Source: a bacterium
Lineage (GTDB): Bacteria > Patescibacteriota > Microgenomatia > Curtissbacterales > GWA2-41-24
Direction: 5' to 3'
NCBI GenBank assembly: GCA_021813125.1
Contig: JAKALT010000004.1
Location: 7,941 to 71,940 of the forward strand
Length of the DNA stretch: 64,000 nt
Shown in pieces: positions 11,524-36,045 of the stretch; within the stretch, counting starts at the first letter, position 1, and every line of letters starts with the position of its first letter. The notes below the pieces were generated by a model. That model made no database searches. It was not told the origin of the DNA and was given only the letters and a program-made list of their open reading frames with translations. Made by a program: the position numbers and the translations under genes.

Positions 11524-11571
11524 AGGTCAGGCCTTTTTCCATGAGAGACCGATAGCTAAGGCCTGACCTTG
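11524..11571. repeat. Palindromic intergenic element, copy 1 (AAGGTCAGGCCTT - 22-nt loop - AAGGCCTGACCTT)
   Basis: Perfect 13-bp inverted repeat lying between the 660-aa gene and virB4. Confidence 0.7.
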
Positions 11572-11602
11572 GCTTGACTAGTGCTGTTGGTTGTGGTGCG
11601 GA

Positions 11603-13507
11603 TCACTGATTCAACGAAGTTGGGGGTGATTGGTTTCCGTCGGTGCCTTTAGTTGCTTGTTGGTTTGCGGCTGAGTCGCTTTCAAATTGCTTGACGATCT
11701 CTTCTTGCGTATGCTGTTCCATTTGTTTGAGCTCTTCGGGGTTTGTGGTTACAAGTGAATGCTCCTCTTCCGATGCCATGACACGGACTGCAACATGGTT
11801 GGGGCCGGCAAAGAATATACCTTCTCCAACGTCGGCCGCCAAAAGAAGGTGTCTTTCTCCTTCTGAAAGATAAAAAACTTCGGCAACTTTGTCGATTGCT
11901 GCAGGTGACTGTTTCAGCAAAATTTGAAATGATGAGTTGGTAACAATTGCTTTGCCGTAGTCTGTGCTTAGAAAGTCTTCGACGTCCTGAGAAATTGTAG
12001 TCAGACCAAGGTAGTATTTACGGGCTCGTTTGGCGATTGAATAAAGAAAGGTGGCGCTTTCGGGAAACTGCATCATATACCAAGCCTCGTCGACGACTAA
12101 GAGGCGTTTTCTGATGTCGTTTTTGATCCTGGTCCAGATGAAATCCAAAATAAGATACATGGCGATGGGTCTTAGCTCCTCCTCTAAACTTTTTACGGAA
12201 AAGACGGTGAAGGTGTTTCGGAGGTCGATATTCGACTGCTGGTTGAAGATGCCGATAAGTGAGCCTTTAACGAATTTTTCAATGCGGTCTGCAAGGCTTT
12301 TGGCCTCGACTTCTTCCATGCCGAGTAAAACTTTGTAAAGATCCTCCATAAGTGGCGGTTCGTTTTTCTGGGTTGATGGGTCGGGAGTTATCCCTTTTTG
12401 CCTGTAAGTGTCGACTAGGGCTTTATCCAAAACGGCATCTTCGGCAGGACTCATGTTACCCATGACGACTTTAAAAAATCCATGGAGGGAAAGAATTTTA
12501 AGGCCCAGTTCATTTTCGCCTTCTTCATAAACCCCGGAAAGGTCAAAGGGATTAATTTTAGCGGGAGAATCGAAGCTAAAGGTGATGTATTCGCCACCTA
12601 TAGCATTGCAGAGATTTTTATATTCTTCTTCCGGGTCAATGACGAGGACTTCTGTTCCAAACATCAGAGATCTTAGGGCTTCAAGTTTGACAAGGTACGA
12701 TTTCCCGGCACCGGATTTGGCAAAGATTACCGAATTGGCGTTTTCCTGGGTGAATCGGTCGAAAATGACCAGGGAGCCGTTGTGCTCGTTTATTCCATAC
12801 ATGATGCCGGTGTTGGATGTTAAAGATGAGGAAATAAACGGAAAAGTTGTGGCAAGAGATGTAGTGTCCATGTTACGGGTTATGTAGAGATGATCCGTTT
12901 GCTGGGGGAGAGTCGTTTTGAATGCATCTTCCATTTGTAATGTGGCGTGTTTGGGCACAAGAAGAAGGGCGCCCATGGTTGATTCAACCTGCTTGGTGAC
13001 CAAATCCAATTCTTCTTTAGAGTCAGCAGGGATAGTGACATAAAGACCGAATTGAAAGAATCGTTCCTGGCCTTTGACCAGCTCTTCCTGCAGGAGCTGG
13101 GCGTCTTCCAGGGCTGCCTGGACGGCCGGGTCGAGAACTTTGCCATGCTGGATGTCCGATGCTATTGTTGCCTCCATTTCGGTGACTTTGCGCTTAAGAT
13201 CGTCCAGAACTCCTTTGGCTTCAACGGGATATTGATACATGGAAATTTCCAGAGTGTGAACAAAGTTGATTAACGGTGAGAGCCAATTAGCCTGGACGTA
13301 TCTGGGATAACCAACGACAAAAAGGGTTCGAAAGTAGGTTGAGCCTATTTTAATGTAGTCGAAATCGACTTCGATTGCCGGCGGGGCAATAATGTCTTTA
13401 ACGGAGACAACGCCTTTTGAAAGAGTTTGCGACCATTGCTTTTCCTTGTCGCTCAAAAGCTCTTGAGGATTTTTGGCTTTGGGTTTTAGGATGTTGACTA
13501 AATTCAT
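11603..13507 (-). CDS. virB4: Type IV secretion VirB4/TraC/PrgJ-family ATPase
   Basis: 634 aa. The N-terminus IAPPAIEVDFDYIKIGSTYFRTLFVVGYPRYV is typical of Gram-positive VirB4 homologues. Walker A is IFAKSGAGKSYLVK and Walker B is RLLVVDEAWYMM. Confidence 0.8.
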   Translation of the reverse strand: MNLVNILKPKAKNPQELLSDKEKQWSQTLSKGVVSVKDIIAPPAIEVDFDYIKIGSTYFRTLFVVGYPRYVQANWLSPLINFVHTLEISMYQYPVEAKGVLDDLKRKVTEMEATIASDIQHGKVLDPAVQAALEDAQLLQEELVKGQERFFQFGLYVTIPADSKEELDLVTKQVESTMGALLLVPKHATLQMEDAFKTTLPQQTDHLYITRNMDTTSLATTFPFISSSLTSNTGIMYGINEHNGSLVIFDRFTQENANSVIFAKSGAGKSYLVKLEALRSLMFGTEVLVIDPEEEYKNLCNAIGGEYITFSFDSPAKINPFDLSGVYEEGENELGLKILSLHGFFKVVMGNMSPAEDAVLDKALVDTYRQKGITPDPSTQKNEPPLMEDLYKVLLGMEEVEAKSLADRIEKFVKGSLIGIFNQQSNIDLRNTFTVFSVKSLEEELRPIAMYLILDFIWTRIKNDIRKRLLVVDEAWYMMQFPESATFLYSIAKRARKYYLGLTTISQDVEDFLSTDYGKAIVTNSSFQILLKQSPAAIDKVAEVFYLSEGERHLLLAADVGEGIFFAGPNHVAVRVMASEEEHSLVTTNPEELKQMEQHTQEEIVKQFESDSAANQQATKGTDGNQSPPTSLNQ

Positions 13508-14397
13508 TGTTGTGGCGGGTTTTGGTTTGGATTAAGTTGTTGCTCTCCGCGAATAGACTGGGCAGCTTTGGCGGTTGCCGTCTTAAGGTTTTCCAAAGCC
13601 TCCATTTGGGAAGGTGCAGGTGCCCGTTGGTTAATGTTTGGAAGGGAATCTGCGTAACCCGGTTGCGGTATCGGCTGGGAGGGTTCCTGGGTATAGGTTG
13701 GTTGCGGTTGAACCGGCGCTGGAGTTGGTACTTCCACCGCCGGTTCAACCATTGGTGTTGTGTAAGATGCTGAATCCAGAATTACCCTTTGAGTGCCTGT
13801 TGGCGCAGGATTATAGATGTCATAGAAGAGTTCAATTAGATCTTTTGTGGTTAGCTGCTTGGTTGTGAGACCAAGGCGGGCCGTCTGTTTTATTAAATGT
13901 TCCCGTTTTGGGGCAAGGGCAACTTTGGCGTCTTGGACCAGCTGTTCTTTATTGTTTGTTTTTACCGGTTTTTTGATGCCAGTTAAGCCAAGCTCGATTG
14001 GAGAAAAGCTGAGGACAAGATAAAAGCGTTTATCCAAAATGGTTTTTTGCTGAACGGTGGACTGGATAAAATCCATGTATTTTTGAATTTGACGCTTAAG
14101 GTCGGGATTCTGCTGGTTTCTTTCTGCTTCAACTAGATGTTGGTAATAGGCAGTGATGTCGGCTCTTTTGGATCGTATCAGAATTTGGATTGGAAACGTC
14201 AGCGAGTTTAAAAGGGCGCCATAAGCATAGATTGTGGCATCTTGTTCAGCTTCCGAGAGAATGTCGAAATTGACTGCAGTTGTTGCAAGGACCATGGCAA
14301 CCCAGCCTGTTTTTAAGATAACGAAGTCTTCGGTTATGTCTTCGATATCCAGATGTTCCTGGGTCGAAGCCTTAATTTTTTGGGCAGCTTGAGCCAT
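13504..14397 (-). CDS. Hypothetical T4SS-associated protein with a Pro/Gln-rich C-terminus
   Basis: 297 aa, translationally coupled upstream of virB4. It has no clear TM segment and ends in a low-complexity P/Q-rich tail. Confidence 0.4.
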   Translation of the reverse strand: MAQAAQKIKASTQEHLDIEDITEDFVILKTGWVAMVLATTAVNFDILSEAEQDATIYAYGALLNSLTFPIQILIRSKRADITAYYQHLVEAERNQQNPDLKRQIQKYMDFIQSTVQQKTILDKRFYLVLSFSPIELGLTGIKKPVKTNNKEQLVQDAKVALAPKREHLIKQTARLGLTTKQLTTKDLIELFYDIYNPAPTGTQRVILDSASYTTPMVEPAVEVPTPAPVQPQPTYTQEPSQPIPQPGYADSLPNINQRAPAPSQMEALENLKTATAKAAQSIRGEQQLNPNQNPPQQ

Positions 14398-15948
14398 TTA
14401 ATTTATCCTTTCTCCCCTGACTCCAATCGGGGCAAGCACTTGACCTGTTAGGTGAAGAGAAACCGGCTTAAAGGATGCAATGTCGCTTTCGGCTTCGATT
14501 GTGTAAGTGCCGCTAGACAAAGGGGTTGCAGAAAGAAACTGGCCAAGCTTGTTGGTTTTCAGGGCCCTTACCGGTATGCCGCTTTCGTCGCGGACCACCA
14601 GAACTGCTCCTTCGATCGGACTGCCTTTATCGTCGGTTACCAGGCCGGAAAGGACATTGGGTTTGTCGGTTAAGGGAATAATTTGAGCCTGCTGGACGCT
14701 CGGTGCAGCCTGAGTTTGTTGGTCTTTATCGGATATTGAAAACTGCGAAAATTCCCGTTTTTGCTGTTTTGGTTTTTCCTCCGTTTTCGGTGCGAGTTTA
14801 GCTGGATGCTGATCTGAATATTGGGTAGTTTCTTGCTTTGGCAGCTGTTTTGGTTGGACTTGAGGCTCAGTTGTTATTTGCGGCGCTGCTTGGACTTTTT
14901 CTTCCTGAATAGGCAGGACAACGGTTGGTGAGTTGTCTTCGAAATGGTATCTCTTTTTGAGCTCGTCGGAGATGTCAAATTTGCGCTCGCCGCGAATTGG
15001 AAGTTTGGAAAGGTCAAAATTGACAGGAGGTGCAAAGTGAAGTTTTCTGACTCTGGTATTACCCACTCCGTGAACAAGTCGAAATTGACCCTCGGAAATT
15101 TTGATAGGTATAACATTATCGAGTGAATAGTTGGTTTCCGATGCCAGATGAGCACTTGGCCTTGCCAGGTCAATTATTTCCTGAGGTTTGTGGTCCAGGC
15201 GCTTTTCGATGCCGGACAAGGTGAATTGTTTAGCTTGTGGCTGTATTTTTGCCCGAGTGAGGGCAGCGGGAGTCTTTTGGGAGATTATTTGTGGTCTCGG
15301 TTCGGGTTCCAAAACCGGAGCCGTTTGGCCTTGGGGAATTTCCTGAAGCGGACCGGAAACTTGCGGAAGTGACCCCAAAAGATAGCCGGACTCTCCTTGG
15401 CCGATCGCTACATATTTATCCTCCCAGGGACTTATCGGCCAAAGAATTGCAGGAGGTAGGTTACCTTCATACTGGCCGGCTGGGAAGCCAAGCCTGTCTA
15501 GTGCCAGTTGTTCTTTAATATCTAAGGAGGTGACGTTTTCTTTTGGAAGAGAACGTAGGTAGGCAATCATTCTTTCCCTGCCTTTTTCTGTTATTTCCTG
15601 GGGAATTTTAGCCTCTTTTTGGGGAGGTTTGGTGACCACGCTCAAAAAGCCCGGAATCCTTTTTTCTTTGATCCAAATCCTTTGGGTAGGGGCTGAGACC
15701 GCTTTGATAAAGGCAAAGATCCATTTATCAAAAGGCCTTCCACCGACAGGTACAAGAGCAATAAAAGCCCCGACGATGCCAATTGTTGCGGCCAAAGGCA
15801 AACGCAAAAGGGTTGGCAGGCCGGAAAAATAAACGAGTACGGCAATTGAAAGAGGGAATATTAAAGTTATAAACTGCCGTGCAGTGAGGTTGCCGAACAG
15901 TTTAAATTCAAAAGCCGCAATATGTTGCGGGACAGGATGCTGCTCCAT
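14398..15948 (-). CDS. PrgI/VirB3-like membrane protein fused to a long C-terminal extension with a carboxypeptidase-regulatory-like beta domain
   Basis: The N-terminal roughly 100 aa (AAFEFKLFGNLTARQFITLIFPLSIAVLVY...) match the PrgI-family pattern of two TM helices. The C-terminus SGLVTDDKGSPIEGAVLVVRDESGIPVRALKTNKLGQF resembles a CarboxypepD_reg-type fold. Confidence 0.5.
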   Translation of the reverse strand: MEQHPVPQHIAAFEFKLFGNLTARQFITLIFPLSIAVLVYFSGLPTLLRLPLAATIGIVGAFIALVPVGGRPFDKWIFAFIKAVSAPTQRIWIKEKRIPGFLSVVTKPPQKEAKIPQEITEKGRERMIAYLRSLPKENVTSLDIKEQLALDRLGFPAGQYEGNLPPAILWPISPWEDKYVAIGQGESGYLLGSLPQVSGPLQEIPQGQTAPVLEPEPRPQIISQKTPAALTRAKIQPQAKQFTLSGIEKRLDHKPQEIIDLARPSAHLASETNYSLDNVIPIKISEGQFRLVHGVGNTRVRKLHFAPPVNFDLSKLPIRGERKFDISDELKKRYHFEDNSPTVVLPIQEEKVQAAPQITTEPQVQPKQLPKQETTQYSDQHPAKLAPKTEEKPKQQKREFSQFSISDKDQQTQAAPSVQQAQIIPLTDKPNVLSGLVTDDKGSPIEGAVLVVRDESGIPVRALKTNKLGQFLSATPLSSGTYTIEAESDIASFKPVSLHLTGQVLAPIGVRGERIN

Positions 15949-16155
15949 AATAAATAAAATTCGAAATTCGAAATCCTAAATTCGAAAATTCTGATTTGTT
16001 CCGTGTTTCGATTTTCGCGCTTCGGATTTTTAGCCTATGGCTACCATAGCATATGAAACAAGAGGGTAAAAGTAGCGCACTTAGCCTCGAAAGTTGAGAA
16101 TTTTCACAAAAAATTAGTGATATGGTGGGATATCTTTTGGTCAGTAGAAGTTGTT

Positions 16156-16203
16156 AAGGTCAGGCCTTTTTCTTGCAAGAGGCGTTGGTTAAGGCCAGAC
16201 TTT
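16156..16203. repeat. Palindromic intergenic element, copy 2
   Basis: AAGGTCAGGCCTT...AAGGCCAGACTTT (two mismatches), lying between the PrgI-fusion gene and the AAA-wHTH gene. Confidence 0.6.
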
Positions 16204-16219
16204 TGCCAGGGATGGCTAT

Positions 16220-17476
16220 TTACGGTTCAAATTTAAGGCCTCGGCCTTTTACGGTCTGGATGTGTACAGGCTTGGCGGGTTCGTCTTCGATTTTCTTTCT
16301 AAGCCTGAAGACCATTTGATCTATTGCCTCATCACTTATTGCTTCCGAAGACTGGGTTTGTGGCCAGACGGCCTTTATGATCTGGTCCCGGTCGAGAACT
16401 TTTTTGGGATTTTCAATTAGAAACTTGAGCAGGCGATATTCCTGAGGAGAAAGAAGTTCGGAGATTATACTTTCCCCCTTTTTAATTTCGTTGGTTTGGG
16501 CGTCAAAAACAATCTTAGTTTGGAGATTTAATTTGGTTGTCTTTATAAATTCCTCAAAGATGGGGATAGTGATTTTATTTTGGTATGAAATTAGATCTAA
16601 ATTGATTAGAGTTTCGTCTATCTGGCTTGGAGTTTTACCCTGGGTAATTGTTAAAAGAGTTTGCTGTTCGACGCCGGTTAGAAATAGCCAAATTTCGTAT
16701 AAAGCCGCTTGTATTTGGTGATTTTTTAAAAGTTGGTTGGTTGTTGGGTCAACATTTTGGCCAAGAATAAGATCTGCTGCGATTTTGGTAAGTTTAGCAT
16801 GGCCACCTGTTATTTTGGTGATTTTGGACTTTTCGTCTTCCTTAAGCTTTTTGGAAAAAACTGCCTCAATTTGGGCAAAAAGATGGTTCAGGGCTGATTT
16901 CTCAAAGATTTTTAGGTAAATGGTATTGCCGATAAAAAAGTCCCAGTACTCTTTGAGGATTTCTTCATCAACCAGACCTGACAGATCTCTTCTGGTTGCA
17001 AAAACCACCGAGAATTTGTATTTAGCGATATTTTTGAGGTTTTTTAAGGTTTGGAAAAAAAACCTGGGAAGTTGGTTTTGGAACTCGTCAAAATGGTCAA
17101 GCAGAAAGATTAAGGTTTGACCCAAATCAGATAATTTATTGACTTCCTCTGAGAGCTGCTTAGTTAAAATTAATTGATCGTCGAGGCTTTTGGGGTCTTG
17201 GTCCATGGCAACTATAAGAAACCTCAAGATTTGAGTGTCGGTTAATTCTGAGAGTTCGAGCAGATTTAGGTATACAAAACGCAGGTTTTTTTCTTTTTCG
17301 CCGAGATGAAACCTCAAAAGGCTACGGTTGTGGGCCAGAAGCCTAAGGATTGTGGCCTTGCCGGCACCGGGAATGCAGATTAGCTGGCAAAATTTGCCGG
17401 TTGTAACGCAGTCTAGAACGGACTTGATTTCTGTTTTTCTAAAATCGTCAGGAAAAGCAGACTCAAAAATTTTCAC
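16220..17476 (-). CDS. AAA+ P-loop ATPase with a C-terminal OmpR/PhoB-type winged-helix DNA-binding domain; putative regulator
   Basis: Walker A is ICIPGAGKATILRLL. The C-terminal region EYRLLKFLIENPKKVLDRDQIIKAVW...QMVFRLRKKIE...IQTVKGRGLKF matches the trans_reg_C pattern. Confidence 0.55.
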   Translation of the reverse strand: MKIFESAFPDDFRKTEIKSVLDCVTTGKFCQLICIPGAGKATILRLLAHNRSLLRFHLGEKEKNLRFVYLNLLELSELTDTQILRFLIVAMDQDPKSLDDQLILTKQLSEEVNKLSDLGQTLIFLLDHFDEFQNQLPRFFFQTLKNLKNIAKYKFSVVFATRRDLSGLVDEEILKEYWDFFIGNTIYLKIFEKSALNHLFAQIEAVFSKKLKEDEKSKITKITGGHAKLTKIAADLILGQNVDPTTNQLLKNHQIQAALYEIWLFLTGVEQQTLLTITQGKTPSQIDETLINLDLISYQNKITIPIFEEFIKTTKLNLQTKIVFDAQTNEIKKGESIISELLSPQEYRLLKFLIENPKKVLDRDQIIKAVWPQTQSSEAISDEAIDQMVFRLRKKIEDEPAKPVHIQTVKGRGLKFEP

Positions 17477-23823: not shown

Positions 23824-23871
23824 AAGGTCAGGCCTTTTTCCAAGTCATGGCTTAGGATAAGGCCTGACCTT
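23824..23871. repeat. Palindromic intergenic element, copy 3
   Basis: AAGGTCAGGCCTT...AAGGCCTGACCTT, perfect, lying upstream of the VirB6-like gene. Confidence 0.7.
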
Positions 23872-24059
23872 GACAAAGGAATCTTAACGACTGAAAATTA
23901 GTTAATAAATTAATATTTGGTGCGGGGAAGTGTAGTTTGAATCTACCACTGTGCCGCAAGGGTAAACAAGTCCCAGTACCGCATCAAATTTTACTAAATC
24001 CCGAGCAGGATAATCGTCTAAATAAACGACTTTAACCTTCTTGGGATCAAGGAGGTTTT

Positions 24060-25331
24060 TTGTTGAAGGAAGCAAATGTTTGTCTGTTGAAGGCCGATGA
24101 TCCCTGCTACCGGAGTGAGGTAGAAGTTGACAGGTTCTCGGTAACGCCTCTAGAACCCGATGAGGCTGACCTGGCGTTTAGGCCGTCTCTTATTAAGCAT
24201 CGCTACAGTGAATTTATAAACTACGGATTTAATGAATTCGAATCATATTGCCGTACTTATAATTTGACCAGGAGTGATTTAACTTCTTACTTTTTGGAAC
24301 AATTTGCCAAAAAAAATTTGGTTGGTTTTGAATACCATTTTGAAACGACAGATGATGGGTCGGTTAATATGGTTTCCACCCATTACGAACAGTCTGGTGA
24401 CGTCTGCGATAGCTTCGCAAGAGCTCGAGACGAAAGGCGATTGGCTGGCTTAGATTCCTCACGTGAGGAGGCAGAGCTTGAAGGTGTAAGAAAGATAAAA
24501 TCAGAACTTCTACAAGAGGGAAAAGATGCAACTGTTCTTTTGGTAAGCAGGCCTCCTGAAAAAAATCAAAACCGTCCCGGTTATGCCGGCTACAGTTTCA
24601 TTTATTTTGGAAAATACGATACCAAGACCGGAAATCTGCCAATGTATGCTTGGAGAAATTACATGACAGTAGACGAGCAAAATGAGTTACGAAGAGAATT
24701 TTTAGGCTTTGAAACAGAGAAAATGAAGGATGCAAACGATTTTTTAAGAAATCCGGCTTTTTCCTTTGGAGAGGAAGGGAATTATGCCTTTGACAGATTA
24801 AGATTTCGGGCAGGAAAAGAAGTAGCAGATCTTTACGATTACAGGTCTGAAGTTGTTGATAGAGCTGCAAAGGAGCTTGTCGATCTTGCGGAAGCAGGGG
24901 TAAGCGATTGGCGTATGAACATCGCCCAAGCAAATATCGAACTTGATTTTATTGAGGCAATTGAAGGAAAACGCAGTTTAAAGTTAGAACCTTCGTCTAA
25001 AACGGAAAGTTTTAAATCCGATGCGGAGGCTTACGGATATATGGTGGCTAGAAAGAAAGATATGGAATCAAAATATAATTTGGCTTCTTATTCGGGTGGA
25101 GGCTGTGGGCGATCAATATTTGCTTCGGTTGGCGGTGAGGCCGAAGGCGCAATAGGTTTGATACCGACACTTGCTATTTCTGATTTGCACTTAAACGGTC
25201 GGGAATATTCAGCGAATTTTAATTGCCCGAAGTGTAACGGAAAGATTATATCTGGACGAGGAATTACCACTTGTCCGCACTGTGGATTTACCAAAGAACA
25301 AGCGGCCAAAGAAATGGGAATTGCCTGCTAG
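24060..25331 (+). CDS. Hypothetical protein with a C-terminal zinc ribbon
   Basis: 423 aa. The C-terminus CPKCNGKIISGRGITTCPHCG is a CxxC...CxxC ribbon. Confidence 0.4.
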   Translation: MLKEANVCLLKADDPCYRSEVEVDRFSVTPLEPDEADLAFRPSLIKHRYSEFINYGFNEFESYCRTYNLTRSDLTSYFLEQFAKKNLVGFEYHFETTDDGSVNMVSTHYEQSGDVCDSFARARDERRLAGLDSSREEAELEGVRKIKSELLQEGKDATVLLVSRPPEKNQNRPGYAGYSFIYFGKYDTKTGNLPMYAWRNYMTVDEQNELRREFLGFETEKMKDANDFLRNPAFSFGEEGNYAFDRLRFRAGKEVADLYDYRSEVVDRAAKELVDLAEAGVSDWRMNIAQANIELDFIEAIEGKRSLKLEPSSKTESFKSDAEAYGYMVARKKDMESKYNLASYSGGGCGRSIFASVGGEAEGAIGLIPTLAISDLHLNGREYSANFNCPKCNGKIISGRGITTCPHCGFTKEQAAKEMGIAC

Positions 25332-25370
25332 GGTATTACATTTGACAAATGACGGGCAGGCCACCAGGTA

Positions 25371-25416
25371 AAGGTCAGGCCTTTGTCAAGATCAACCAAA
25401 GTTAAGGCTTGACCTT
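25371..25416. repeat. Palindromic intergenic element, copy 4, in terminator-like position between convergent genes
   Basis: AAGGTCAGGCCTT...AAGGCTTGACCTT, lying between the 423-aa gene and the metzincin gene 3' ends. Confidence 0.6.
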
Positions 25417-25435: not shown

Positions 25436-28400
25436 TCAGGTTGATTTATTGCTGGAGAAGATTACCAGGCCTGTCCCGCAATTTGGGGCACAAACTGTTT
25501 CTTGGTAAGTTGTTGAAGGTTGGAGGCCGGTGAAGGTTGCTTGAGGCAGTGTTGAGTTGTCGTTTATAGTCTGAGTCTTGCAAAGACTTCCTGCCGCACT
25601 GCAGCTTGAAAAAGAAGCAGGGTAAACAACGGCAACGTATGACCAACCCCAAGACATCGAGGCGCTGCCGTCCGCATTGGCTCTTGTACCGCCCGATTTT
25701 ATAATGGGCCCAGTTCCGTCTGTCACTCTCACCTCAAAGATGAGTGATGAGCCAGGCCAAAAGATAAACTTCGGAGTTGAACAGGAAAGACTAGTACTTC
25801 TGCAGTCGGAAGTTTTTTTGTTTACATCAACGAAACCGGCGTAACCCCATGGTCTTCCCCAGCTGAGGTTGAGGCTTGTATTCGGAGGGGTTGGTGTAGG
25901 GGTAGGCGTTGCCTTTGGGGTAGGTGTTGGTGTGGGCTTCGGGGTTGGAGTGGGTGTGGCTTCAGGAGGCAAAGTTGGAAGCGGTGTCGGTGTAGGTGTC
26001 GGACCGGGTGTCGGGGGTGGCGTGGGTGACGTTGTCGGATTTGGTGTCATGGTTGGTTTTGGGATACAGCTGGTATCGATATTTTGATAATGCTGCAGAA
26101 CAAGAGGTTTTAAGGCCATGTCACGGACGAACATTTTGAAACAGTCGGTTGAGCCGATTAAGGGCTGTTTACCTTCGCCAGTTGTATCGCCGAGAACGTT
26201 TGAAGTTGACACACCTAAGGAGGCGCCGCCTACCTGGCCAGGGAGTTTTTTGGTGAGGCCGGAGATAATCGATTCAGCCATTAATGATGCACATGTTTTA
26301 AGGGCGGGAAGGTTCAGTAAATTATCCTCTACACATTTCTTGATCTGTGGAAAGTTGTCAGATTCCGGCAGGTTAGCCCAGTTGAGTAAGCCGCTGCAAT
26401 CTCCAGCTTTGCATTGATCCAGTAAATCTTGGAGATGTGCAGCAAGAGGGTCTTGCTGGCCTTGATTAGCGCTTTGTAAGACAAGATTGGGTGTAAAAAA
26501 CGCGTAAACACCCGGCCGGCCGGTTTTTTGAATTGAATTTGGCCCATCAATATTCTCTGCAGTGTCCGAGGCAAGGGTGTGATTCCAGATTTCACCGATC
26601 CAGGGAATCCTAAACACCGGCCAGACACTGACTGTTGCCGTACAGGTTTCTATTCCTGCTGTTATTGCACAACTATCCCACTGGCCGTTGCCGGAGGTTG
26701 GCAAATCCATTTGTTTGGAAAAGGTAAATGTAATGTTGCAGACGACGTTGGTGTTTTGGGGATCCAGCTGATTTGGGTCGTTGGCGTTTGGTTGGCTGCA
26801 GGTGCCCGCAGGAAGTTGGCCCGCCGGAACTGCACAATAGGGGGCCGTCCCGGAGCGGCCGTTTCCGAGCACTTTTACGCATGTAGGATCAGAAGCAGCG
26901 TAGGCATTTTTGATCGGGTGGATGTTTTCGATTTGCAGGTAGCTGACGACCTTTTTTAAGGCTTTGGTTAGCGGGTTTTGGGAGGCCAGGAAAACGCATC
27001 TTTTGATGATTTTAGCGAGTACGTTTTGGGTGCCTTGAGTTGAGGCTTGAAGGATCAGGTTGTTTTGGGTAGACTGCGCGATTTTAGGGGCAAGCATCAT
27101 ATTGGTTATGCCGGTTGTGGCAGCAGCGCGGAAAGTGTCGGGCATAATGAAGGTAATTGGCGGTCTGGAGTCAAATGGCACTGGGCATGTTCCTCCATTT
27201 TTAATTTGCGTTATCATGTCGCTTCCAACACCTACTTTAAATTCCAGTTTTCCCTCGTAGTATTCGTTGTAGGCTGTTGGAATTTTTACCCAATAAGGCC
27301 CCCATGTTGACTGGAAATTAGCTGAATCTGGGTTTGGGGCCCCCCATTTTTGGACCATGTCATAGATTGTATGAGGGTTCAGGCCGTTAACATCGGTTAT
27401 GATACTTGTCGATTCGGCCAAAGTAGGCTTGTTGTAAACGTAGTTGACGTATTTGACTCTCAACTGGTTGGTCAAGACTTTTGAGCCCGCTTTTTGATTG
27501 GGGCCAAAAAAGTTGTCACGGTCTTCGGTTGTTACTGAGGTTAAAGGAGCTTGTTGGTGGTTTGGGTCCTGATAACGGCCTTCTGTGTAATTTGAATTAT
27601 TGTCGGCAAAAATTGCCTGCAGTTTGGACATGTCGAGGGTGAAGGTGAATTGTTTATTTGGAGGGTCTGTAACAGCTGTAACGGTTGAGCCGGGAGCGCC
27701 GGTACCTTTGATGGTAAATGTGAAGTTAGGGTCTTGAGGGTTGCCCTTGTCGTCTGTAATGTAATGGTCTGTCAGGTTATCGGTTTGAACTGCGTTACTG
27801 CAAGCTTCGGGTTTAGGTGGTGGGGGAGGCGTGGGGGTAGGATTAGGCGTTGGTGTGGGAGGTGTGCTAGAAAGTGTGATTCTAACCGCATTGGAAATTT
27901 GGGCTGTGAAGTAGGTTAAGGCTGCACAGAAAGTTCCGTTATAACCATTCCATATTTGCGAGTTGCCGCTTACATGGATATTCCCGCCGGTAGCCGGCAG
28001 TCCGGTATTAGCATCAATTATATTTAAATAAACTTCTTGAGATGAGAGTATTGGGAGGCTTAAAGAGCCGTTTTCAAAGGTGAAATTAGCGTTTGTGCCA
28101 CTTATTGATGGTGGATCTTTGAGCTTATACTGACCTGTGTTTATTTGGTTACACTCACCGGGAGGTGGCGGACCACCGATAGTGAAATTTGGTGTTTTTG
28201 CAAGGACAGAAAAGCCGTAAACCAACCCTCCGCAGTATGTACCTGGCGGCGCACTGTTCCAAATTGTTGTGTTTGGCGAGCCGATGGGTAGCGGACCTGA
28301 GTCGAAGGCGGGTGGCACGGTGAAGTCACAGTTGGGTGCTGCCCAAACCCCGAAGTTACCATTGGGAGGTGTATGGGAAAAGGTAACAGTGTTGCCGCTA

Positions 28401-30241
28401 ACGGAGGCACTAATAGACCATGTTGATGGTGTTGGTGATGGTGGAGGGGGCGCGCCAATTGTTACGGTTCCGGAAAGACCTGAGGCATCAATTGAGGTGA
28501 TTGAGATTGTTACACCGTTTGTGGGGTCGGAAAAGCTAGTACCGGGTTTAAAAGCGGCATCTATTAAATCTGTCCAGTCATTTGGGTCAGCTGATGTGGA
28601 ATCTGGTGTTGAGTCTATTAAATAACTGTGGATATCCCCTGGTTGGTTAAAACGAATTAGGGCGCCGTTTTGTCCCGCAGATGGAATTCCTGTATCTAAT
28701 CCAGTAGGTTGCCGCCATTCCACATAGTACCAGGATACAGTTCCCCCCATAGGTTCGGTGATCCTGGGTACTTTGATAACATTAATGCAGCTGGTACTTT
28801 CGAAAGGACACAGACGAAATGGGCTTGAACTGGTGATAGTTTGTGTATTTCCACTATTGAGCCACCCATAAATATCCTTGTGAGGAGCGTCCACATCGAA
28901 AACATCAACTCCCATTACAGAATAAAGACCGTTGTATTCCTGGGTTGTGCATCCTGTTGTGGTATATATTGCCGAGCCACAATCCCAGTCATTTGAATGG
29001 TCAGCACCTAGCTGGTGGCCAATTTCGTGTGTGAGGCCATGATTGCCAAAATTTTGATTACCGAAAGGGGTGACATAAGCACCATTAGTGGAAGATGTGA
29101 AACCTATGGTAACAGATTTTGTACCTGTGGAATCGACGATGGGGTACGTGACGGGAGGCATCCATGCAAACCCAAGTGAGGTATTGCAGTTAACTACGAA
29201 ATGTACATGTCCATATTGGGTAAAATCGACGCTTGCTGTTGAGGCATTGATGAAGTCAGGGATTTGGGTCCATAGTGCTACCGGATCATTATTACAACTG
29301 GTCCCTACATTTAATGGGATATTAAACCAACCGTATACGTCAGGTTGAATGTCTAGCTGGCCATTAGAGGAGGCTAAAAAAAAATTTTTCATAAAATTGA
29401 CATAACCTTCAACGTCGGTTTTTGAGCCATTTGGATATTCAGGAGGCTGGTCTTGCCAACGAACTAAAATAACGGCTACCTTTTGAGGGCCTGTGGAGAT
29501 AGATGTTCCCTGAACATTGCTTGTTTTGGAGTCTTTTACCAATACAGTGTTGTCCCACTTATAACCATCAACAGAAATTCTTGCTCCGTTTTGGTTAGGT
29601 TCATCAACGAACTTTAGAAGGTAAACTTCTTTCGGGCTTTGTTGGAGCATGTTTACTCTTTGAGGTTTCTCGTTGGCCTTTTCTATATATGTTTGAAGCA
29701 GAGTTCCTTCCTTGTTGAACGATTGTTCCAAGTCGTTTGGAGCTAAATCCTGAATAGGCTTGCGTTCGGCGTCGGGGATTGACAAGGCTAAGGCTTCGGA
29801 TATTTTATCTTCCTTGATTAGGGATAAAACTTCTTTTTTACGAGCTGCTGCTGTTTCTTTTATTTTCGATTCTAAAGCTTCTTTTTCCTTCCCTTGTGAT
29901 TTTTCATACTTTTTAGCCAGGGAAACTAATTCGGAGGTATCTTTTTGAGCCTGGGTGACAGTTGATGGAGCTGGCGAAGGTTTATGTTTTAAAAGTTTAA
30001 AGCCGAATATTAAGACAGATATTATGGACACTAAAAGCAGGACAATTAGGCTTATCTTGCGGAGAAATTTGAAATTTGGTGGAGGTTTTTGCGGATTTGG
30101 CGGCTGGTTTTGGAATTTGGTACCGGGATTTTCACCAAGCTGATTTGCAGTCGGTGACTGGAGACCGCCATTTAATGTCCCTTCGAGGCTGAAAGGCGTG
30201 GCCATACAAACAGTGTACATTTGATATATAACGTGTGACAA
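25436..30241 (-). CDS. Giant membrane-anchored metzincin-type zinc metalloprotease (1601 aa) with multiple beta-rich domains and Pro/Thr linkers
   Basis: HEIGHQLGADH (aa 405-415) matches the HExxHxxGxxH metzincin motif. A candidate Met-turn, LYSVMG, lies about 30 aa downstream. An N-terminal TM anchor spans aa 61-83. PTPTPTP linkers are present, and the C-terminal region is Cys-rich. Confidence 0.6.
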   Translation of the reverse strand: MSHVIYQMYTVCMATPFSLEGTLNGGLQSPTANQLGENPGTKFQNQPPNPQKPPPNFKFLRKISLIVLLLVSIISVLIFGFKLLKHKPSPAPSTVTQAQKDTSELVSLAKKYEKSQGKEKEALESKIKETAAARKKEVLSLIKEDKISEALALSIPDAERKPIQDLAPNDLEQSFNKEGTLLQTYIEKANEKPQRVNMLQQSPKEVYLLKFVDEPNQNGARISVDGYKWDNTVLVKDSKTSNVQGTSISTGPQKVAVILVRWQDQPPEYPNGSKTDVEGYVNFMKNFFLASSNGQLDIQPDVYGWFNIPLNVGTSCNNDPVALWTQIPDFINASTASVDFTQYGHVHFVVNCNTSLGFAWMPPVTYPIVDSTGTKSVTIGFTSSTNGAYVTPFGNQNFGNHGLTHEIGHQLGADHSNDWDCGSAIYTTTGCTTQEYNGLYSVMGVDVFDVDAPHKDIYGWLNSGNTQTITSSSPFRLCPFESTSCINVIKVPRITEPMGGTVSWYYVEWRQPTGLDTGIPSAGQNGALIRFNQPGDIHSYLIDSTPDSTSADPNDWTDLIDAAFKPGTSFSDPTNGVTISITSIDASGLSGTVTIGAPPPPSPTPSTWSISASVSGNTVTFSHTPPNGNFGVWAAPNCDFTVPPAFDSGPLPIGSPNTTIWNSAPPGTYCGGLVYGFSVLAKTPNFTIGGPPPPGECNQINTGQYKLKDPPSISGTNANFTFENGSLSLPILSSQEVYLNIIDANTGLPATGGNIHVSGNSQIWNGYNGTFCAALTYFTAQISNAVRITLSSTPPTPTPNPTPTPPPPPKPEACSNAVQTDNLTDHYITDDKGNPQDPNFTFTIKGTGAPGSTVTAVTDPPNKQFTFTLDMSKLQAIFADNNSNYTEGRYQDPNHQQAPLTSVTTEDRDNFFGPNQKAGSKVLTNQLRVKYVNYVYNKPTLAESTSIITDVNGLNPHTIYDMVQKWGAPNPDSANFQSTWGPYWVKIPTAYNEYYEGKLEFKVGVGSDMITQIKNGGTCPVPFDSRPPITFIMPDTFRAAATTGITNMMLAPKIAQSTQNNLILQASTQGTQNVLAKIIKRCVFLASQNPLTKALKKVVSYLQIENIHPIKNAYAASDPTCVKVLGNGRSGTAPYCAVPAGQLPAGTCSQPNANDPNQLDPQNTNVVCNITFTFSKQMDLPTSGNGQWDSCAITAGIETCTATVSVWPVFRIPWIGEIWNHTLASDTAENIDGPNSIQKTGRPGVYAFFTPNLVLQSANQGQQDPLAAHLQDLLDQCKAGDCSGLLNWANLPESDNFPQIKKCVEDNLLNLPALKTCASLMAESIISGLTKKLPGQVGGASLGVSTSNVLGDTTGEGKQPLIGSTDCFKMFVRDMALKPLVLQHYQNIDTSCIPKPTMTPNPTTSPTPPPTPGPTPTPTPLPTLPPEATPTPTPKPTPTPTPKATPTPTPTPPNTSLNLSWGRPWGYAGFVDVNKKTSDCRSTSLSCSTPKFIFWPGSSLIFEVRVTDGTGPIIKSGGTRANADGSASMSWGWSYVAVVYPASFSSCSAAGSLCKTQTINDNSTLPQATFTGLQPSTTYQETVCAPNCGTGLVIFSSNKST

Positions 30242-30628: not shown

Positions 30629-31032
30629 TATGATCCAGCGACAGTTGGAATGGTTAATGATCCAGAGATGATTGTGACACCAAAGAATGTTTCAACAAGT
30701 TTGATGATTGCAAATGCCAGCAGAACGATAACCAAACCGATTAGGGCGGCTGTGATCATACCTCGTGCTCCGGCAACAGACTTTTCGTCTCCTCCTGCCG
30801 TGATCCACCTGAGACCACCGATCAAAAGGAAGATGAAGGCCAAAACGAAAGCGATCAAAAGAATGAACCTGATGACGGCTCTGACAATTTGGATGATGTC
30901 CGTGTTACCTTGAAGCTCACTTGGTACGATGTTTTGAGCAAAGACTGCCATTGGCAGAGTCATTGCTGCTGCTTGCAGTGCGGCGAAGCCGATTAATTTT
31001 TTAGCTTTTGACATATTTTCACCTCCTTTCAA
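30628..31032 (-). CDS. VirB2/TrbC-like pilin-like small protein
   Basis: 134 aa. A signal peptide is followed by two helices flanking TAGGDEKSVAGAR. It shares the AFAIIKLVETFFGVTI segment with the next gene. Confidence 0.5.
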   Translation of the reverse strand: MKGGENMSKAKKLIGFAALQAAAMTLPMAVFAQNIVPSELQGNTDIIQIVRAVIRFILLIAFVLAFIFLLIGGLRWITAGGDEKSVAGARGMITAALIGLVIVLLAFAIIKLVETFFGVTIISGSLTIPTVAGS

Positions 31033-31084
31033 AGTAAGTTACTTGCGAATAAAGTCTAGAACAAAAACTCATTTTTGCGCCCTA

Positions 31085-31423
31085 TTATCTTGTCGGTAGC
31101 TGGAAGCCGCCGGAAACAATTGTGACGCCAAAAAAAGTCTCTACTAATTTGATTATAGCAAAGGCACCGAGGACTACAATCATGCCAATCAAGCCCCAAT
31201 AAATTTGTGCCCAGGCGGAGGAAACAGATTTGGAATCGCTCCCTGATGTTATGAAGCGAAAACCTGCCAGAATTATCCAGATAAAAGAGAGTATGAAGCC
31301 GCCAATTAAGAGCATCGATATTGAACCTCGAATTAATCCGGCGACAAAGTTGGAGGGATTGCCGCCTACTGTCGGGACACCGCCCGGAGGATTGATTGTA
31401 CCTAGTTGGGCAAGATTAGTCAT
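31085..31423 (-). CDS. VirB2/TrbC-like pilin-like small protein
   Basis: 112 aa. Two hydrophobic helices flank TSGSDSKSVSSA, and the second helix is paralogous to that of the 30628-31032 gene. Confidence 0.45.
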   Translation of the reverse strand: MTNLAQLGTINPPGGVPTVGGNPSNFVAGLIRGSISMLLIGGFILSFIWIILAGFRFITSGSDSKSVSSAWAQIYWGLIGMIVVLGAFAIIKLVETFFGVTIVSGGFQLPTR

Positions 31424-32469: not shown

Positions 32470-34963
32470 CGGTGCCTCCTAAAAATAGTTTATCGACAAT
32501 TTGCAAAACTGCAAAGGCAAGGATAATAACGGCGAGGCCAATAAGGGCGAAAATGAGTCGATTTCTCGCCGAGGCTGCCGCTTCCGGGTTGCCGGAAGAT
32601 GTTATGAATTGAATTCCTGAGATGACGATTATGATAATCGAGAGGAATCCGGCTATGCCAAATATGTATGGCAGAATTGCAGAAATTATTCCGCCGGGTG
32701 TTGCAAGCGCACAGTTTTTTATCGGCCCCTGGACTACGCCTGCACCTCCCGGGAAAGCAAGCCAGCCGCATTTGTTGTTTTGAGGCAAAGTAAAGTCGAC
32801 AACTCCTGACTCTTCTGACATAAAAACCACAACAACAGCTTGATGATGTCCGTTAGGTAGGGCATTGAAGCGGACAATACCGCCGCCTGCTGGGACCGGT
32901 TGGCTTAAGCCGTCAAGGTCTTTAATTGCGACAATGGCTTCACCGCCTATTCCGGGACAATTATCAGTTGGGCATTTTACATTAAAGATGGCATCGTTTC
33001 CGTTTATGACACTGGCAAGATACATGGTCCATTGGATGGCGTCGGTTTTGCAGGGAACGTCTATATTAACTGGGTTAGAAACTTGGTTTGCAGCATAGAT
33101 TATTTCCGCGGTGTAGCTGGCGGGTGTTGCCGGTGCGTCCCAGACGACGCTGGAGACATTTTCTGGTATCGAGATTTCCGCGCCGGTTTCGTTGATGTGG
33201 ATGACGCTACTTTTTCCGGAATTGGGTGAGATGCCGAAAATCACTTTGTACTCAAAGCAATTGGTAATTGAAAGTGTCCAGGTGTTGCCCGGGGGCGGGT
33301 TGACGGTAAAAAACTGGGTATTGGAAACTGCTACTCCGAATGCCAGCTGAGCGCAATAGTCGCCAACAGGCGGGAAGTTCCAAGTGACTTGAGTATTGCC
33401 CGATGCTATGGCGCCGCTATCAAACGGTCTTGGTAAAACACCCCAGTTACAGACGTCCCCGCTGCGTGGAGCAACAACAAGGGCAATATTGCCATTTGAT
33501 TCTGGGGTAAATGAAAATAGGACGGATAGTTGATTACTGGCAACATTTGGCGGGTCCAGATGCCAAGTTGCGACTGCTTTTACGGTGAGGGTGTTTGTTG
33601 CACCTACCGTAAGGGCACAAAGGTTTTTGGTGACATCGTCCCTCGCCCCAACGAGATAAGTTGTGTCGCTTGGCACATTAGGGGCTGTTAGCGGAATATT
33701 GCCAAGCCCGGTTCTGGTCCCACTACTTGGAGCCGAAAGGGAATCAATCGCAGCAAAGAATGTATGGGTTGAGTCACCACTTATGATTGAAACAGTTATG
33801 CTTCCCCCCTCGTCTACTGTTGTTGGAGAGAAATTGTAACTGCATGGGGTAGGCGGGTTGACGTTGATAACAACAGAATCGCTGGCGCTTCCGCCGGGCC
33901 CATTACAATTTAAAGTGTACGTGGTATCTATGATTAAGCTAGGTGTGGGTTGACCGGGTGATGACGTACCACTCCAACCTCCAGGAGATACGGAGCATGT
34001 TGTGGAGTTTGTTGAGGACCAGGTAAGAGTGGCAGTAGCACCATAGCTAATGGTTATGGGGCCATTGGAACCGTTAGCTTTAATATCGGCAGTTGGTGCT
34101 GGTGCAGTTACTGTTACCGAACACGTGGCATTTTGGGTACCGCTTGTGACAGTGACGGTTTTGGTCCCGGCAGTTGAATAATTCGTTGCAAAGTTCGAGC
34201 CAGACCCAGAAGATGGTGTCCCTCCGGGTGCTGACCAGCTGAATGTTCCGGTGCCTGCCGCGGCTGTGAAATTGGCGTTGACTCCAGTTGTAACTGTTTG
34301 TGTTGGCGGTGAACAGGTAGGTGCCGGAGGCGGGGCGACATTAACTGTGACGGAGGCCGTAGCAGTTCCACTGACATTGGTGCAGGTTAAGGTGAAGGTA
34401 GTTGTGGATATAAGGTTGCCGGTTGGTTGGGTACCGCTTGTGGCAACGGATGTGCCATTTAGAGTGCAGGTATCTGCGTTTGTTGAAGTCCAGGTTAAGT
34501 CTGTTGACGTGTTATATGGAATATTGGTGCTGGCTGCGGTTATGGAGACAGTTGGTACGGGAGGGGCGATGACGGTGATTGTGATACCGGTAGTTGGAGA
34601 ACAGATTTCCGGAAATGGGGTGAGGGGGTTTGATGTTCCGGCTACAACTAAGAATGATCCAGAATATGATCGTGGGTCACCAGCACCAAATAGATCATCA
34701 AGGTTTACTGTGGTGGTGAAGGAATTGCTGGGTGTATTAAAGTTTGTGGGAAAGAGACTGCTGTCATATTTAATTACGTAATCCACGTTTGGTTGGAGGT
34801 TTTGGACTGTTACATTAAAAGACCCATGGGCGACAACTTCCGTTGTTGAGACAATCAACTGACAGCCGGCTTGGGCTTCTATAGGTTTTGGAGAAGCGGC
34901 AAAAGGCAGCAATATGAGAACAAACGTAAACAAAACGGCAGCTAACTTCAGGAACAGTTTCAT
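32459..34963 (-). CDS. Large secreted multi-Ig-like-domain protein with a C-terminal pilin-like module
   Basis: 834 aa. A signal peptide is followed by about 700 aa of T/S-rich repeated beta domains. The C-terminus reads IIVISGIQFITSSGNPEAAASARNRLIFALIGLAVIILAF. Confidence 0.5.
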   Translation of the reverse strand: MKLFLKLAAVLFTFVLILLPFAASPKPIEAQAGCQLIVSTTEVVAHGSFNVTVQNLQPNVDYVIKYDSSLFPTNFNTPSNSFTTTVNLDDLFGAGDPRSYSGSFLVVAGTSNPLTPFPEICSPTTGITITVIAPPVPTVSITAASTNIPYNTSTDLTWTSTNADTCTLNGTSVATSGTQPTGNLISTTTFTLTCTNVSGTATASVTVNVAPPPAPTCSPPTQTVTTGVNANFTAAAGTGTFSWSAPGGTPSSGSGSNFATNYSTAGTKTVTVTSGTQNATCSVTVTAPAPTADIKANGSNGPITISYGATATLTWSSTNSTTCSVSPGGWSGTSSPGQPTPSLIIDTTYTLNCNGPGGSASDSVVINVNPPTPCSYNFSPTTVDEGGSITVSIISGDSTHTFFAAIDSLSAPSSGTRTGLGNIPLTAPNVPSDTTYLVGARDDVTKNLCALTVGATNTLTVKAVATWHLDPPNVASNQLSVLFSFTPESNGNIALVVAPRSGDVCNWGVLPRPFDSGAIASGNTQVTWNFPPVGDYCAQLAFGVAVSNTQFFTVNPPPGNTWTLSITNCFEYKVIFGISPNSGKSSVIHINETGAEISIPENVSSVVWDAPATPASYTAEIIYAANQVSNPVNIDVPCKTDAIQWTMYLASVINGNDAIFNVKCPTDNCPGIGGEAIVAIKDLDGLSQPVPAGGGIVRFNALPNGHHQAVVVVFMSEESGVVDFTLPQNNKCGWLAFPGGAGVVQGPIKNCALATPGGIISAILPYIFGIAGFLSIIIIVISGIQFITSSGNPEAAASARNRLIFALIGLAVIILAFAVLQIVDKLFLGGTGVS

Positions 34964-35016
34964 CTCGGCTTAACTTAAATGTAGCATTTTTCGAAGATTG
35001 ACGCTAAAAGTAGCGA

Positions 35017-35946
35017 TTAAGAATTGTATACAAGCCCCGGTATAGGAACAATGGCAACACCTAAAAATTGCATAATTATCACGGAAAAGGCTATGAAAAG
35101 TGCTCCGGCTATGGCAGCGACGATCATTTCCCGGCCTCCCGACATTTTTTGAGGGTCGCCAGACGAAGTCATAACACGTATTGATCCGATGACCATAAGA
35201 ATTAAAGCGATGCCTCCCGATATACCGAGGGCAATGCGAAGAAGCGTTGTTGCAAAATCACCAATTTTAATAGGTATTGTGCCTATTGCTGTTTCGCACC
35301 CAGCCTTGCATGGGTTGAAACCTGCACTTGAAGTGCTACCAACGCTACCACTACCAATTCCATTTATAGGGTCTGCTATTGCAGCATAATGTTGGCACTG
35401 TGCAAGGTCGGTATAGGTACTGGGATATGAAGATACGCGGCATTGATAAGTATTGTTTGTATCCACATATATTTCATAATATGTGGTATCTGGAGGGTGA
35501 AAGTAGGGATCCTTGGAAGAATCATAAGGAATAGGGTCTGCGGTAGTACTCCCGCAATCGATCTCCTTTCCACTTATGAGTAGTTGCTTGTAATCAAAAG
35601 TATATGATCCACCGCTATATGGGATTTTGCCAGCAATTGAATAAGTTGTGCTTATTGCTGAATTGTAGGATATGTTTGTTATTTTAGTTTTACCTTTGTA
35701 TATTATTCCGAGCGAGTACCAGTCACCAGTATCGTAATAACCGGGGTTAGCTGCACCGGTCACCACAGCATTATTGAAAAAAAGCATGATCTGAGTTCCG
35801 TCTGAAGAAACCATGGAGAATACATAGGCAAGTTGACAAGTATCTGCTTGAGCATTTGGAGGTTTTATTAATACTGTTCCAAGGGTTAATAGAAAAATAA
35901 TGGCAAACGATAAAAAACCAGGAACAAACTTGAGGAGCAGTTTCAT
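35017..35946 (-). CDS. Secreted protein with a C-terminal pilin-like module
   Basis: 309 aa. The C-terminal roughly 95 aa (CKAGCETAIGTIPIKIGDFATTLL...VMTSSGDPQKMSGGR...) are about 90% identical to the C-terminus of the 36068-37432 gene. Confidence 0.5.
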   Translation of the reverse strand: MKLLLKFVPGFLSFAIIFLLTLGTVLIKPPNAQADTCQLAYVFSMVSSDGTQIMLFFNNAVVTGAANPGYYDTGDWYSLGIIYKGKTKITNISYNSAISTTYSIAGKIPYSGGSYTFDYKQLLISGKEIDCGSTTADPIPYDSSKDPYFHPPDTTYYEIYVDTNNTYQCRVSSYPSTYTDLAQCQHYAAIADPINGIGSGSVGSTSSAGFNPCKAGCETAIGTIPIKIGDFATTLLRIALGISGGIALILMVIGSIRVMTSSGDPQKMSGGREMIVAAIAGALFIAFSVIIMQFLGVAIVPIPGLVYNS

Positions 35947-36000
35947 ACGCTTATCTCAAATGTAGCATTTTTGGAGCTTTACCGCTAAGTTGCCAGGATA

Positions 36001-36045
36001 AAGGTCAGGCCTTTGCTAAGGATCGCCCAAGTTAAGCCTGACCTT
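36001..36045. repeat. Palindromic intergenic element, copy 5
   Basis: AAGGTCAGGCCTT...AAGCCTGACCTT, lying inside the pilin-module array between the 309-aa and 454-aa genes. Confidence 0.6.

Follow-up and report, generated by a model that had tools for sequence, protein, structure and literature searches.

The question raised by this locus is why one and the same short hairpin should recur in five gene spacers of a single bacterial gene cluster, and whether it stands there as a transcription signal, as a site read by some protein or as a repeat that has been copied from place to place. The locus lies in a 64,000-nt stretch of DNA (contig JAKALT010000004.1 of assembly GCA_021813125.1, positions 7,941 to 71,940, forward strand), which was analysed as a whole and is called the window here; positions are counted from its first letter. 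We argue, with a probability of roughly 0.6, that the five palindromes belong to a hairpin repeat resembling REP sequences (palindromes that are repetitive and extragenic) and the Rickettsia palindromic elements (RPE), which has been copied around these genomes by some mechanism and has survived where it could be tolerated. A first-pass annotation of the window had offered, among other options, a family like REPs or like MITEs (miniature transposable elements with inverted repeats), and this option is supported by the dispersal of the copies, by the subfamilies of their loops, by near-identical paralogs at unrelated loci and by genic copies that stay in frame.

One hairpin in five spacers

The arm AAGGTCAGGCCTT was searched on both strands of the window with up to two mismatches, and the count was compared with 100 dinucleotide-preserving shuffles. 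We observed 12 matches against 1.98 expected, a number which none of the 100 shuffles reached; ten of them paired up as five inverted pairs, and the remaining two were unpaired and at chance level (about 2 expected). The resulting five palindromes are 45-48 nt long, with 13-nt arms and a loop of 19-22 nt. We built a covariance model on 40 family members; with its filters switched off, it recovered just these five copies from the whole window, at 57-65 bits, the runner-up match scoring 11.8 bits. All five share the polarity of the + strand, with a T after the left arm and a T before the right arm, a uniformity which is not significant on its own.

The window covers the chromosomal origin region (yidC, dnaA, dnaN), followed by a type IV secretion system (T4SS)-like cluster which encodes a VirB4-like ATPase, a PrgI-like protein, a regulator with AAA_22 and Trans_reg_C domains, an M23 peptidase and seven proteins with the PF18895 T4SS_pilin domain; beyond this T4SS/pilin cluster come smpB, the transfer-messenger RNA (tmRNA) gene, tRNAs, dnaG, rpoD and other housekeeping genes. 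Copy 1 (11523-11570, +; 58.7 bits) has perfect 13-bp arms and a 22-nt loop, and lies 32 nt past the stop of the VirB4-like gene (11603-13507, -), with the start of a 660-residue open reading frame (ORF; 9425-11407, -) 115 nt on. Copy 2 (16156-16203, +; 56.9 bits) also has a 22-nt loop, and its right arm AAGGCCAGACTTT gives one A.A mismatch and one G.T pair; it stands 16 nt past the stop of the AAA_22 and Trans_reg_C regulator (16220-17476, -), the PrgI-like gene being 207 nt on. Copy 3 (23824-23871, +; 64.2 bits), with perfect 13-bp arms and a 22-nt loop that holds an inner stem, occupies a divergent spacer, where an 813-residue ORF (-) starts 116 nt off and a cobalamin riboswitch (23908-23989, +) follows 36 nt on. 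Copy 4 (25371-25416, +; 65.1 bits) has a 20-nt loop and one G.T pair and sits in a convergent spacer, 39 nt past the gene at 24060-25331 (+) and 19 nt past that at 25436-30241 (-). Copy 5 (36001-36045, +; 58.0 bits) has a 19-nt loop and a right arm with a 1-nt deletion, AAGCCTGACCTT, and is found 22 nt past the stop of a 454-residue T4SS_pilin-domain gene and 54 nt ahead of the next one (both -). The best sub-threshold match of the model (11.8 bits) is a mini-palindrome at 16235-16248, AAGGCCTCGGCCTT, which has the same AAGGCC/GGCCTT ends and lies inside the 3' end of the regulator gene.

The first-pass annotation had described five palindromes of about 46 nt with shared arms and a variable loop of 19-22 nt. 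This description held (the loops are 22, 22, 22, 20 and 19 nt), save that copy 1 had been placed one base off, at 11524-11571. It had put the copies between co-directional genes, as is the case for copies 1, 2 and 5, and between convergent genes, as for copy 4, but had left the divergent copy 3 unmentioned. Its statement that no copy occurs elsewhere in the window agrees with the covariance model, which finds none in the other 39 kb, and the element is thus no generic feature following most genes. The assembly artefact which it had considered is excluded, because the copies are present base for base in independent assemblies (two from NCBI, two from ENA and one from Logan). The window is 100% identical to GCA_027346405.1 and 99.66% identical to GCA_021843035.1, and two of the matching assemblies differ from it by 0.33% outside the elements. 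RNA folding, which it had proposed as a check, gave stable structures for the + strand of all five copies, with free energies of -19 to -32 kcal/mol and z scores of -2.0 to -6.6 (copy 1, -27.4 and -4.7; copy 3, -31.6 and -6.6). As DNA, the same strand folds at -7 to -18 kcal/mol.

Over the whole family the consensus consists of 13-bp arms, AAGG-N-C-N-GGCCTT and its complement, around a variable loop of 10-23 nt, which gives a total of 36-49 nt; with flanks it reads nCnnGGTA-AAGGTCAGGCCTT...AAGGCCTGACCTT-nnCnTnGG. Among 40 aligned copies, 96.3% of the stem cells are standard pairs. The central pair 7 tolerates mismatches and the other stem positions are nearly invariant; only pair 5 covaries (UA 33, GC 3, CG 2, AU 1, GU 1), with 7 double changes against 1.1 expected and a covariation score which 0 of 500 shuffles reached. 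Since the covariation runs between the arms, it supports, at the level of sequence, pairing of the arms within one strand and not two independent double-stranded binding sites. The asymmetry of G.U against A.C mismatches, tried as a test of a role at the RNA level, was mixed and uninformative.

Dispersal in related genomes and inside genes

An exact two-arm pattern was scanned against one genome per species and matched 23 loci in five assemblies. The window's own genome was not among the scanned assemblies' matches. The same pattern matched 16 more loci in metagenomes, several of them duplicating genome loci, and a looser search raised the number of unique simple copies (36-49 nt) to 57 and also gave composite forms, which have long loops or three arms; loci of this collection are cited below by L numbers. 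The 1.13-Mb assembly WY3.bin73 alone holds 11 exact matches, with degenerate copies perhaps 2-3 times more numerous. Relatives thus carry dozens of copies, and the closest of them share synteny of the T4SS cluster with the window at 67-77% nucleotide identity. No match to the two-arm pattern was found in viral contigs, and no Rfam family matched the elements at gathering thresholds over the whole window or at E<=1 around copies 3 and 4. A search of the open-access literature brought up no account of palindromic repeats of this kind in these bacteria.

The hosts most likely belong to the Curtissbacteria, a lineage of the candidate-phyla radiation, because one host labelled 'Gammaproteobacteria' encodes a SufC that is 100% identical to that of Candidatus Curtissbacteria GW2011_GWA1_40_16; synteny and similarity would place the window in the same lineage. 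The two assemblies titled 'uncultured Gammaproteobacteria', CAYTEJ01 and CAZEDQ01 (L001, L003, L006-L009, L012-L014, L016, L018-L020, L023), are nevertheless syntenic with the window, and their labels look wrong, since it is one of them that encodes this SufC.

In the relatives, copies were found downstream of rplL, rpmG, type IV pilin-like genes, a sortase gene and ruvC. Others lie inside the atp operon, between atpA and atpG and between atpD and atpC in one genome and between atpH and atpA in another, and the element also separates two genes whose products resemble subunits of succinyl-CoA ligase or ATP-citrate lyase. The link to the T4SS/pilin region noted earlier therefore stands as local clustering in this genome, but not for the relatives, whose copies follow ribosomal-protein, metabolic and repair genes. 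This bears on the proposal that the copies are operators for the T4SS-cluster regulator at 16220-17476, which would co-regulate the secretion and pilin genes. All five copies of this genome lie in that cluster, in three genomes the regulator gene has a copy directly behind it, and a second, different Trans_reg_C gene of the OmpR/PhoB type (L037:1294-1797, -) adjoins an element. We nevertheless consider such operators most improbable. The relatives' element follows or interrupts unrelated housekeeping genes, most copies stand past stop codons and not at promoters, and the spacing of the arms varies from 10 to 23 nt or more. Covariation between the arms, and not within a half-site, also speaks for arm pairing and not for two double-stranded sites, and winged-helix domains of the OmpR/PhoB type usually bind direct repeats. 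As an observation apart, Trans_reg_C genes lie about 15-50 nt from an element, downstream in the window and upstream in L037, which may be coincidence.

About 47 of the 57 copies are intergenic, and at least five are genuine intragenic exceptions, four of them in frame in genes for conserved proteins. In the ATP-dependent DNA ligase of L015 the element corresponds to a 24-residue gap against the solved structure 2hiv, and in SufC of L016 it splits the alignment with 2d2e, leaving about 19 residues unaligned; in RecF (L015) and in exonuclease III (xth, L030) it likewise forms an insertion relative to the solved homologue. The fifth interrupts a riboswitch-controlled protein of no assigned function (L040). 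The encoded peptides, variants of KVRPL/KGQAF ... LRPDL/LRPGL, add about 11-24 residues.

Four species share the site of the SufC insertion, while their SufC proteins are 60-80% identical. Where the arm codons specify invariant amino acids, 8 of 8 are identical in the four species, compared with 45 of 164 (27%) in the rest of the gene, and one species pair shows a compensated change from T:A to C:G, which is synonymous in one arm (GGT to GGC) and replaces Asp by Gly in the other (GAC to GGC). This may reflect either constraint at the nucleotide level or, since other SufC homologues carry unrelated inserts at the element's site, perhaps repeated hits on a permissive loop. Homologues P0002-P0005, considered at the protein level as decayed copies, were dropped, the DNA of P0004 having no recognisable arms, and no decay is claimed. 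In homologues P0011-P0100 the loop after GVSVFNVxRKA is an insertion hotspot in Curtissbacteria, which also holds recurrent repeat-like peptides (GPVSSFPP...STAATP and SVILSEAKNL...QDDK), and many proteins end in repeat-like tails (..SSRQARTI, ..VIARSEATKQS); judged from these sequences, further in-frame repeat families are suggested in the Curtissbacteria lineage. SufB on the 131,612-nt contig discussed below (L054:11212-13671) carries a LAGLIDADG intein and measures 819 residues against about 464 in relatives.

Copying, placement and competing explanations

The loops form subfamilies, and their relationships point to copying. Loops differing by a single nucleotide were found on different contigs of one genome (L010:6087, L010:7152 and L021:1344) and again in another genome (L009:4792 and L013:3051), and loop edit distances of 4 or less occur in 14 of 255 within-genome pairs against 6 of 525 between-genome pairs. 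Closest to the copy 3 loop is that of L010:2888, a copy of another species which follows rplL and is not orthologous. Comparison with the spacers of related genomes, also proposed by the first-pass annotation, gave counterparts for two window copies. An element stands at the position of copy 2 in L014 and L021, the L021 loop being flipped and of another subfamily, and copy 4 has orthologues in L008:5241 and L040:3052, whose loops differ by 2 nt. For copy 1, on the other hand, the corresponding spacer of L021 is without an element. Copies 2 and 4 date back at least to the split from the relatives.

In this genome no further copy was found in the flanks of the window (8.8 kb to the left and 9 kb to the right) or in the 20.8 kb scanned of a 131,612-nt contig, on which the window probably lies as well. 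The count over the roughly 82-103 kb covered is therefore five copies, all within 25 kb of the T4SS/pilin cluster, against none in the other 57-78 kb. The set of this genome looks small and old, with copies so far only in the T4SS/pilin cluster, because its five loops have no close paralog among themselves, the arms of three copies (2, 4 and 5) are slightly damaged and all copies seen lie in that cluster. In 48 oriented copies, the flanking sequence contains no repeated di- or oligonucleotide that could be a target-site duplication. A clean empty-site comparison for defining the ends of the element failed, as the orthologous spacers were too diverged and the atpA tails differed between genomes.

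The placement of the copies raises the question whether they end transcripts. Among the 37 copies in co-directional or convergent spacers, 28 lie 2-33 nt past the upstream stop codon (median 27 nt), and eight further copies lie in divergent spacers. Both orientations occur, with a bias of 25:10 towards the sense strand relative to the upstream gene and of 33:14 towards the G-rich strand for the canonical strand; the two are confounded, and strand composition alone may account for them. No run of T follows the stem on either strand, and a terminator scan picks up none of the five window copies. Of about 55 gene ends in the window, only 5 carry a copy. The terminator or attenuator function raised by the first-pass annotation is thereby weakened, given the missing T-run, the loops of 10-23 nt and the copies that lie in the atp operon and within essential reading frames, since transcription has to pass through both.

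The main competitor of the copied repeat is a less conventional 3'-end role, namely a host-selected RNA hairpin at which a sequence-specific factor ends, processes or stabilises transcripts, the intragenic and intra-operon copies being by-products or attenuators. The distances to stop codons fit it, the RNA folds are stable, and the exactly complementary arms give the RNA of either strand an equal stem, so that independence of orientation is expected. The arms are also kept at orthologous sites of genomes 67-77% identical and at the nucleotide level in sufC, and hairpins with a T-run are not above shuffled sequence in the window (27 against 24.2 and 30 against 23.4), so that another 3'-end signal may serve. 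Efficient termination would, however, be harmful in essential ORFs and in the atp operon, where copies are found; the copies in divergent spacers and the few gene ends served are unexpected as well, and G.U against A.C mismatches do not consistently favour the sense strand. Copying, moreover, and not independent terminator evolution, is what produces near-identical paralogs and loop subfamilies. We therefore regard a primary role of this kind as unlikely. It and the copied repeat are not mutually exclusive, since REPs are known to be co-opted as transcript 3'-end elements.

The element could also act at the DNA level, being read as a hairpin or cruciform, for instance as an uptake or recombination signal similar to paired DNA uptake sequences (DUS) or uptake signal sequences (USS), or as a site of chromosome organisation. 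The arm sequence is nearly invariant across species and kept at the nucleotide level in sufC, and the canonical strand coincides 33:14 with the G-rich one, taken as a stand-in for the leading strand. Of the five solid intragenic hosts, three (recF, DNA ligase and xth) are genome-maintenance genes, towards which a bias of neisserial uptake sequences has been reported. The count of repair genes is tiny, however, and its sampling biased; single arms are not beyond chance (2 unpaired near-matches against about 2 expected), the density of about 1 per 10-25 kb or lower is far under that of uptake sequences, and no copy occurs in 57-78 kb of this genome outside the T4SS cluster. A host signal of this type thus appears very unlikely.

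Several observations nevertheless weigh against a copied repeat. The clustering close behind stop codons would look alike for a functional 3' element. The same arms are kept across genomes which are 67-77% identical in coding DNA, and inside a coding region; this is unexpected for junk and fits a host-selected signal as well or better. For the concentration of five copies in 25 kb, with none in 57-78 kb elsewhere, the selfish model offers only a loose account: a fast-evolving region may tolerate the copies, or hopping may be local. The copy number, tens per genome at most and five in about 82-103 kb of this genome, is far under that of classical REPs. Finally, Pfam searches of about 50 window ORFs and 10 element-flanked ORFs revealed no transposase, REP-associated tyrosine transposase (RAYT), Y1/HUH enzyme, integrase or other mobilising candidate, and all-against-all clustering of 344 ORFs from 39 loci gave no recurrent mobilising family; the sole family recurring near elements is a Xer-like recombinase, which appears to be syntenic housekeeping. 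A further possibility is a conserved structured signal of candidate-phyla bacteria, whose arm sequence and pairing would be held by selection even inside essential genes and across genera, and whose folded strand would be read by a dedicated protein; candidates for the latter are a nuclease or recombinase specific for hairpins, a factor acting at transcript ends and a component of DNA uptake or repair. We hold this to be quite unlikely; if true, it would mean a previously unrecognised genome-wide signalling system in these minimal genomes.

For the reading which we prefer, a repeat that is copied and survives where tolerated, the course of events may be pictured as follows. Copies would be placed at many unrelated sites and would persist where the harm is small, that is, a few to about 30 nt past stop codons, between operon genes and, in frame, where a protein has a permissive surface loop. 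That the arms stay complementary and nearly invariant points to some protein that would recognise the folded single strand, either a mobilising enzyme or a host factor. Copying might pass through a single-stranded DNA hairpin intermediate, by a HUH/RAYT-like or another route. Once in place, the element may act mildly on transcripts, as a 3' hairpin by which they are protected or ended, at most weakly, and it may promote rearrangements.

A candidate for such a rearrangement is the cassette at 23872-25370 (+), which is bounded by copies 3 and 4 and consists of a cobalamin riboswitch and a 423-residue zinc-ribbon protein. The riboswitch (23908-23989, +) is of the AdoCbl-II class, at 41.8 bits against a gathering score of 36.5, and the protein (24060-25331, +) has no Pfam match but a zinc ribbon, CxxC...CxxC, at its C terminus. 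With respect to its two flanking genes, the cassette of the window is oriented opposite to that in L008 and L040, where the riboswitch core is conserved (L040:2823-3016, -; L008:~5400-5538) and the protein has diverged almost beyond recognition. It is a reasonable inference that the cassette was inverted via the two palindromes.

Some further features of the window were noted. The minus-strand leader of the PrgI-like gene (about 15950-16150) contains some 150-200 nt conserved in three genomes (ATATCCCACCATATCAC..TTTTTGTGAAAATT..TTTCATATGTTATGG), at least as well as the neighbouring coding DNA, and may be a promoter or leader element. Just past the end of the T4SS/pilin cluster smpB (43499-43930, +) adjoins a full-length tmRNA gene (44226-44643, -; 111.7 bits); no integrase or direct repeat that would indicate an island edge was seen at this border, and the 21-kb T4SS region had no match in a plasmid collection, giving no sign of a known conjugative plasmid. 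In the tRNA gene cluster, a LAGLIDADG_3 homing-endonuclease ORF (49690-50448, +) overlaps tRNA-Ser(gga) (50348-50435). A group I intron (59322-59547, +; Rfam RF00028, 66.7 bits) lies where no tRNA was called and may split a tRNA or another gene.

Bacteria of the candidate-phyla radiation have tiny, streamlined genomes and are usually described as repeat-poor. Palindromes in frame in sufC, recF, DNA ligase and xth would represent the Rickettsia type of 'selfish DNA in protein-coding genes' in an unrelated reduced lineage. For annotation they are a warning, as the element yields odd protein insertions and spurious small ORFs, and it should be useful as a marker for strain typing and for checking bins, two carrier assemblies being labelled Gammaproteobacteria. 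It is also a candidate source of rearrangement around surface-protein and secretion genes, and its near-invariant arms offer a concrete bait for the recognising protein.

Comparison with known systems

Some known systems were set aside on their anatomy. The arms do not fit the RYYYAAC / GTTRRRY core sites of integron attC sites, the orientations are mixed and the window has no integrase; shufflon, parS and CRISPR readings were likewise dropped on anatomy. DUS and USS are very frequent as single copies, at about 1 per kb and genes included, whereas here unpaired arms are at chance and there is 1 element per 13 kb or fewer. Terminators of the intrinsic (Rho-independent) type, and those paired uptake sequences which also serve as terminators, resemble the element as GC-containing hairpins soon after stop codons with bidirectional potential, but it has no U/T tract, loops of 10-23 nt, one common stem sequence, copies within operons and ORFs, and no single arms. 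With MITEs it shares terminal inverted repeats, small size, an intergenic preference and possible effects on neighbouring transcripts; unlike them, it lacks both a target-site duplication and a parent insertion sequence whose ends would match, and it is much shorter than is typical of them.

The comparison with REP and REPIN elements, which are associated with RAYT (TnpA-REP) transposases (PMC3116915, PMC2817692, PMC8266576, PMC3733652), goes further. Both are short imperfect palindromes that form stem-loops with a shared consensus and are mostly extragenic near the 3' ends of genes; both occur in either orientation, with occasional clusters and shared arms, lack a target-site duplication and are amplified in particular lineages. 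Each 13-nt arm is itself quasi-palindromic (AAGG-N5-CCTT), and therefore the whole element resembles a small REP doublet. REPs typically exceed 100 copies per genome, whereas the present family reaches tens at most, and its consensus lacks the GTAG or CGTC tetranucleotide tag at one end that serves as a REP criterion (PMC3733652). The long variable loop and the several copies inside reading frames also set it apart, no RAYT was seen among the window ORFs, the element-flanked ORFs or the 39 loci, and its host, from the candidate phyla, has a genome of only about 1 Mb.

It is in these last respects that the RPE, which lie in frame in protein genes (reviewed in PMC10969869), offer the counterpart. 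RPE are longer, at about 100-150 bp against 36-49 nt and about 11-24 residues here, have no sequence relationship to the present element and belong to another phylum. Like them, nevertheless, it is a palindromic repeat family of a reduced genome which is found both between genes and in frame in unrelated conserved genes, where it adds a partly conserved peptide (K-G/V-Q/R-A/P-F/L ... L-R-P-D/G-L) and leaves the reading frame intact.

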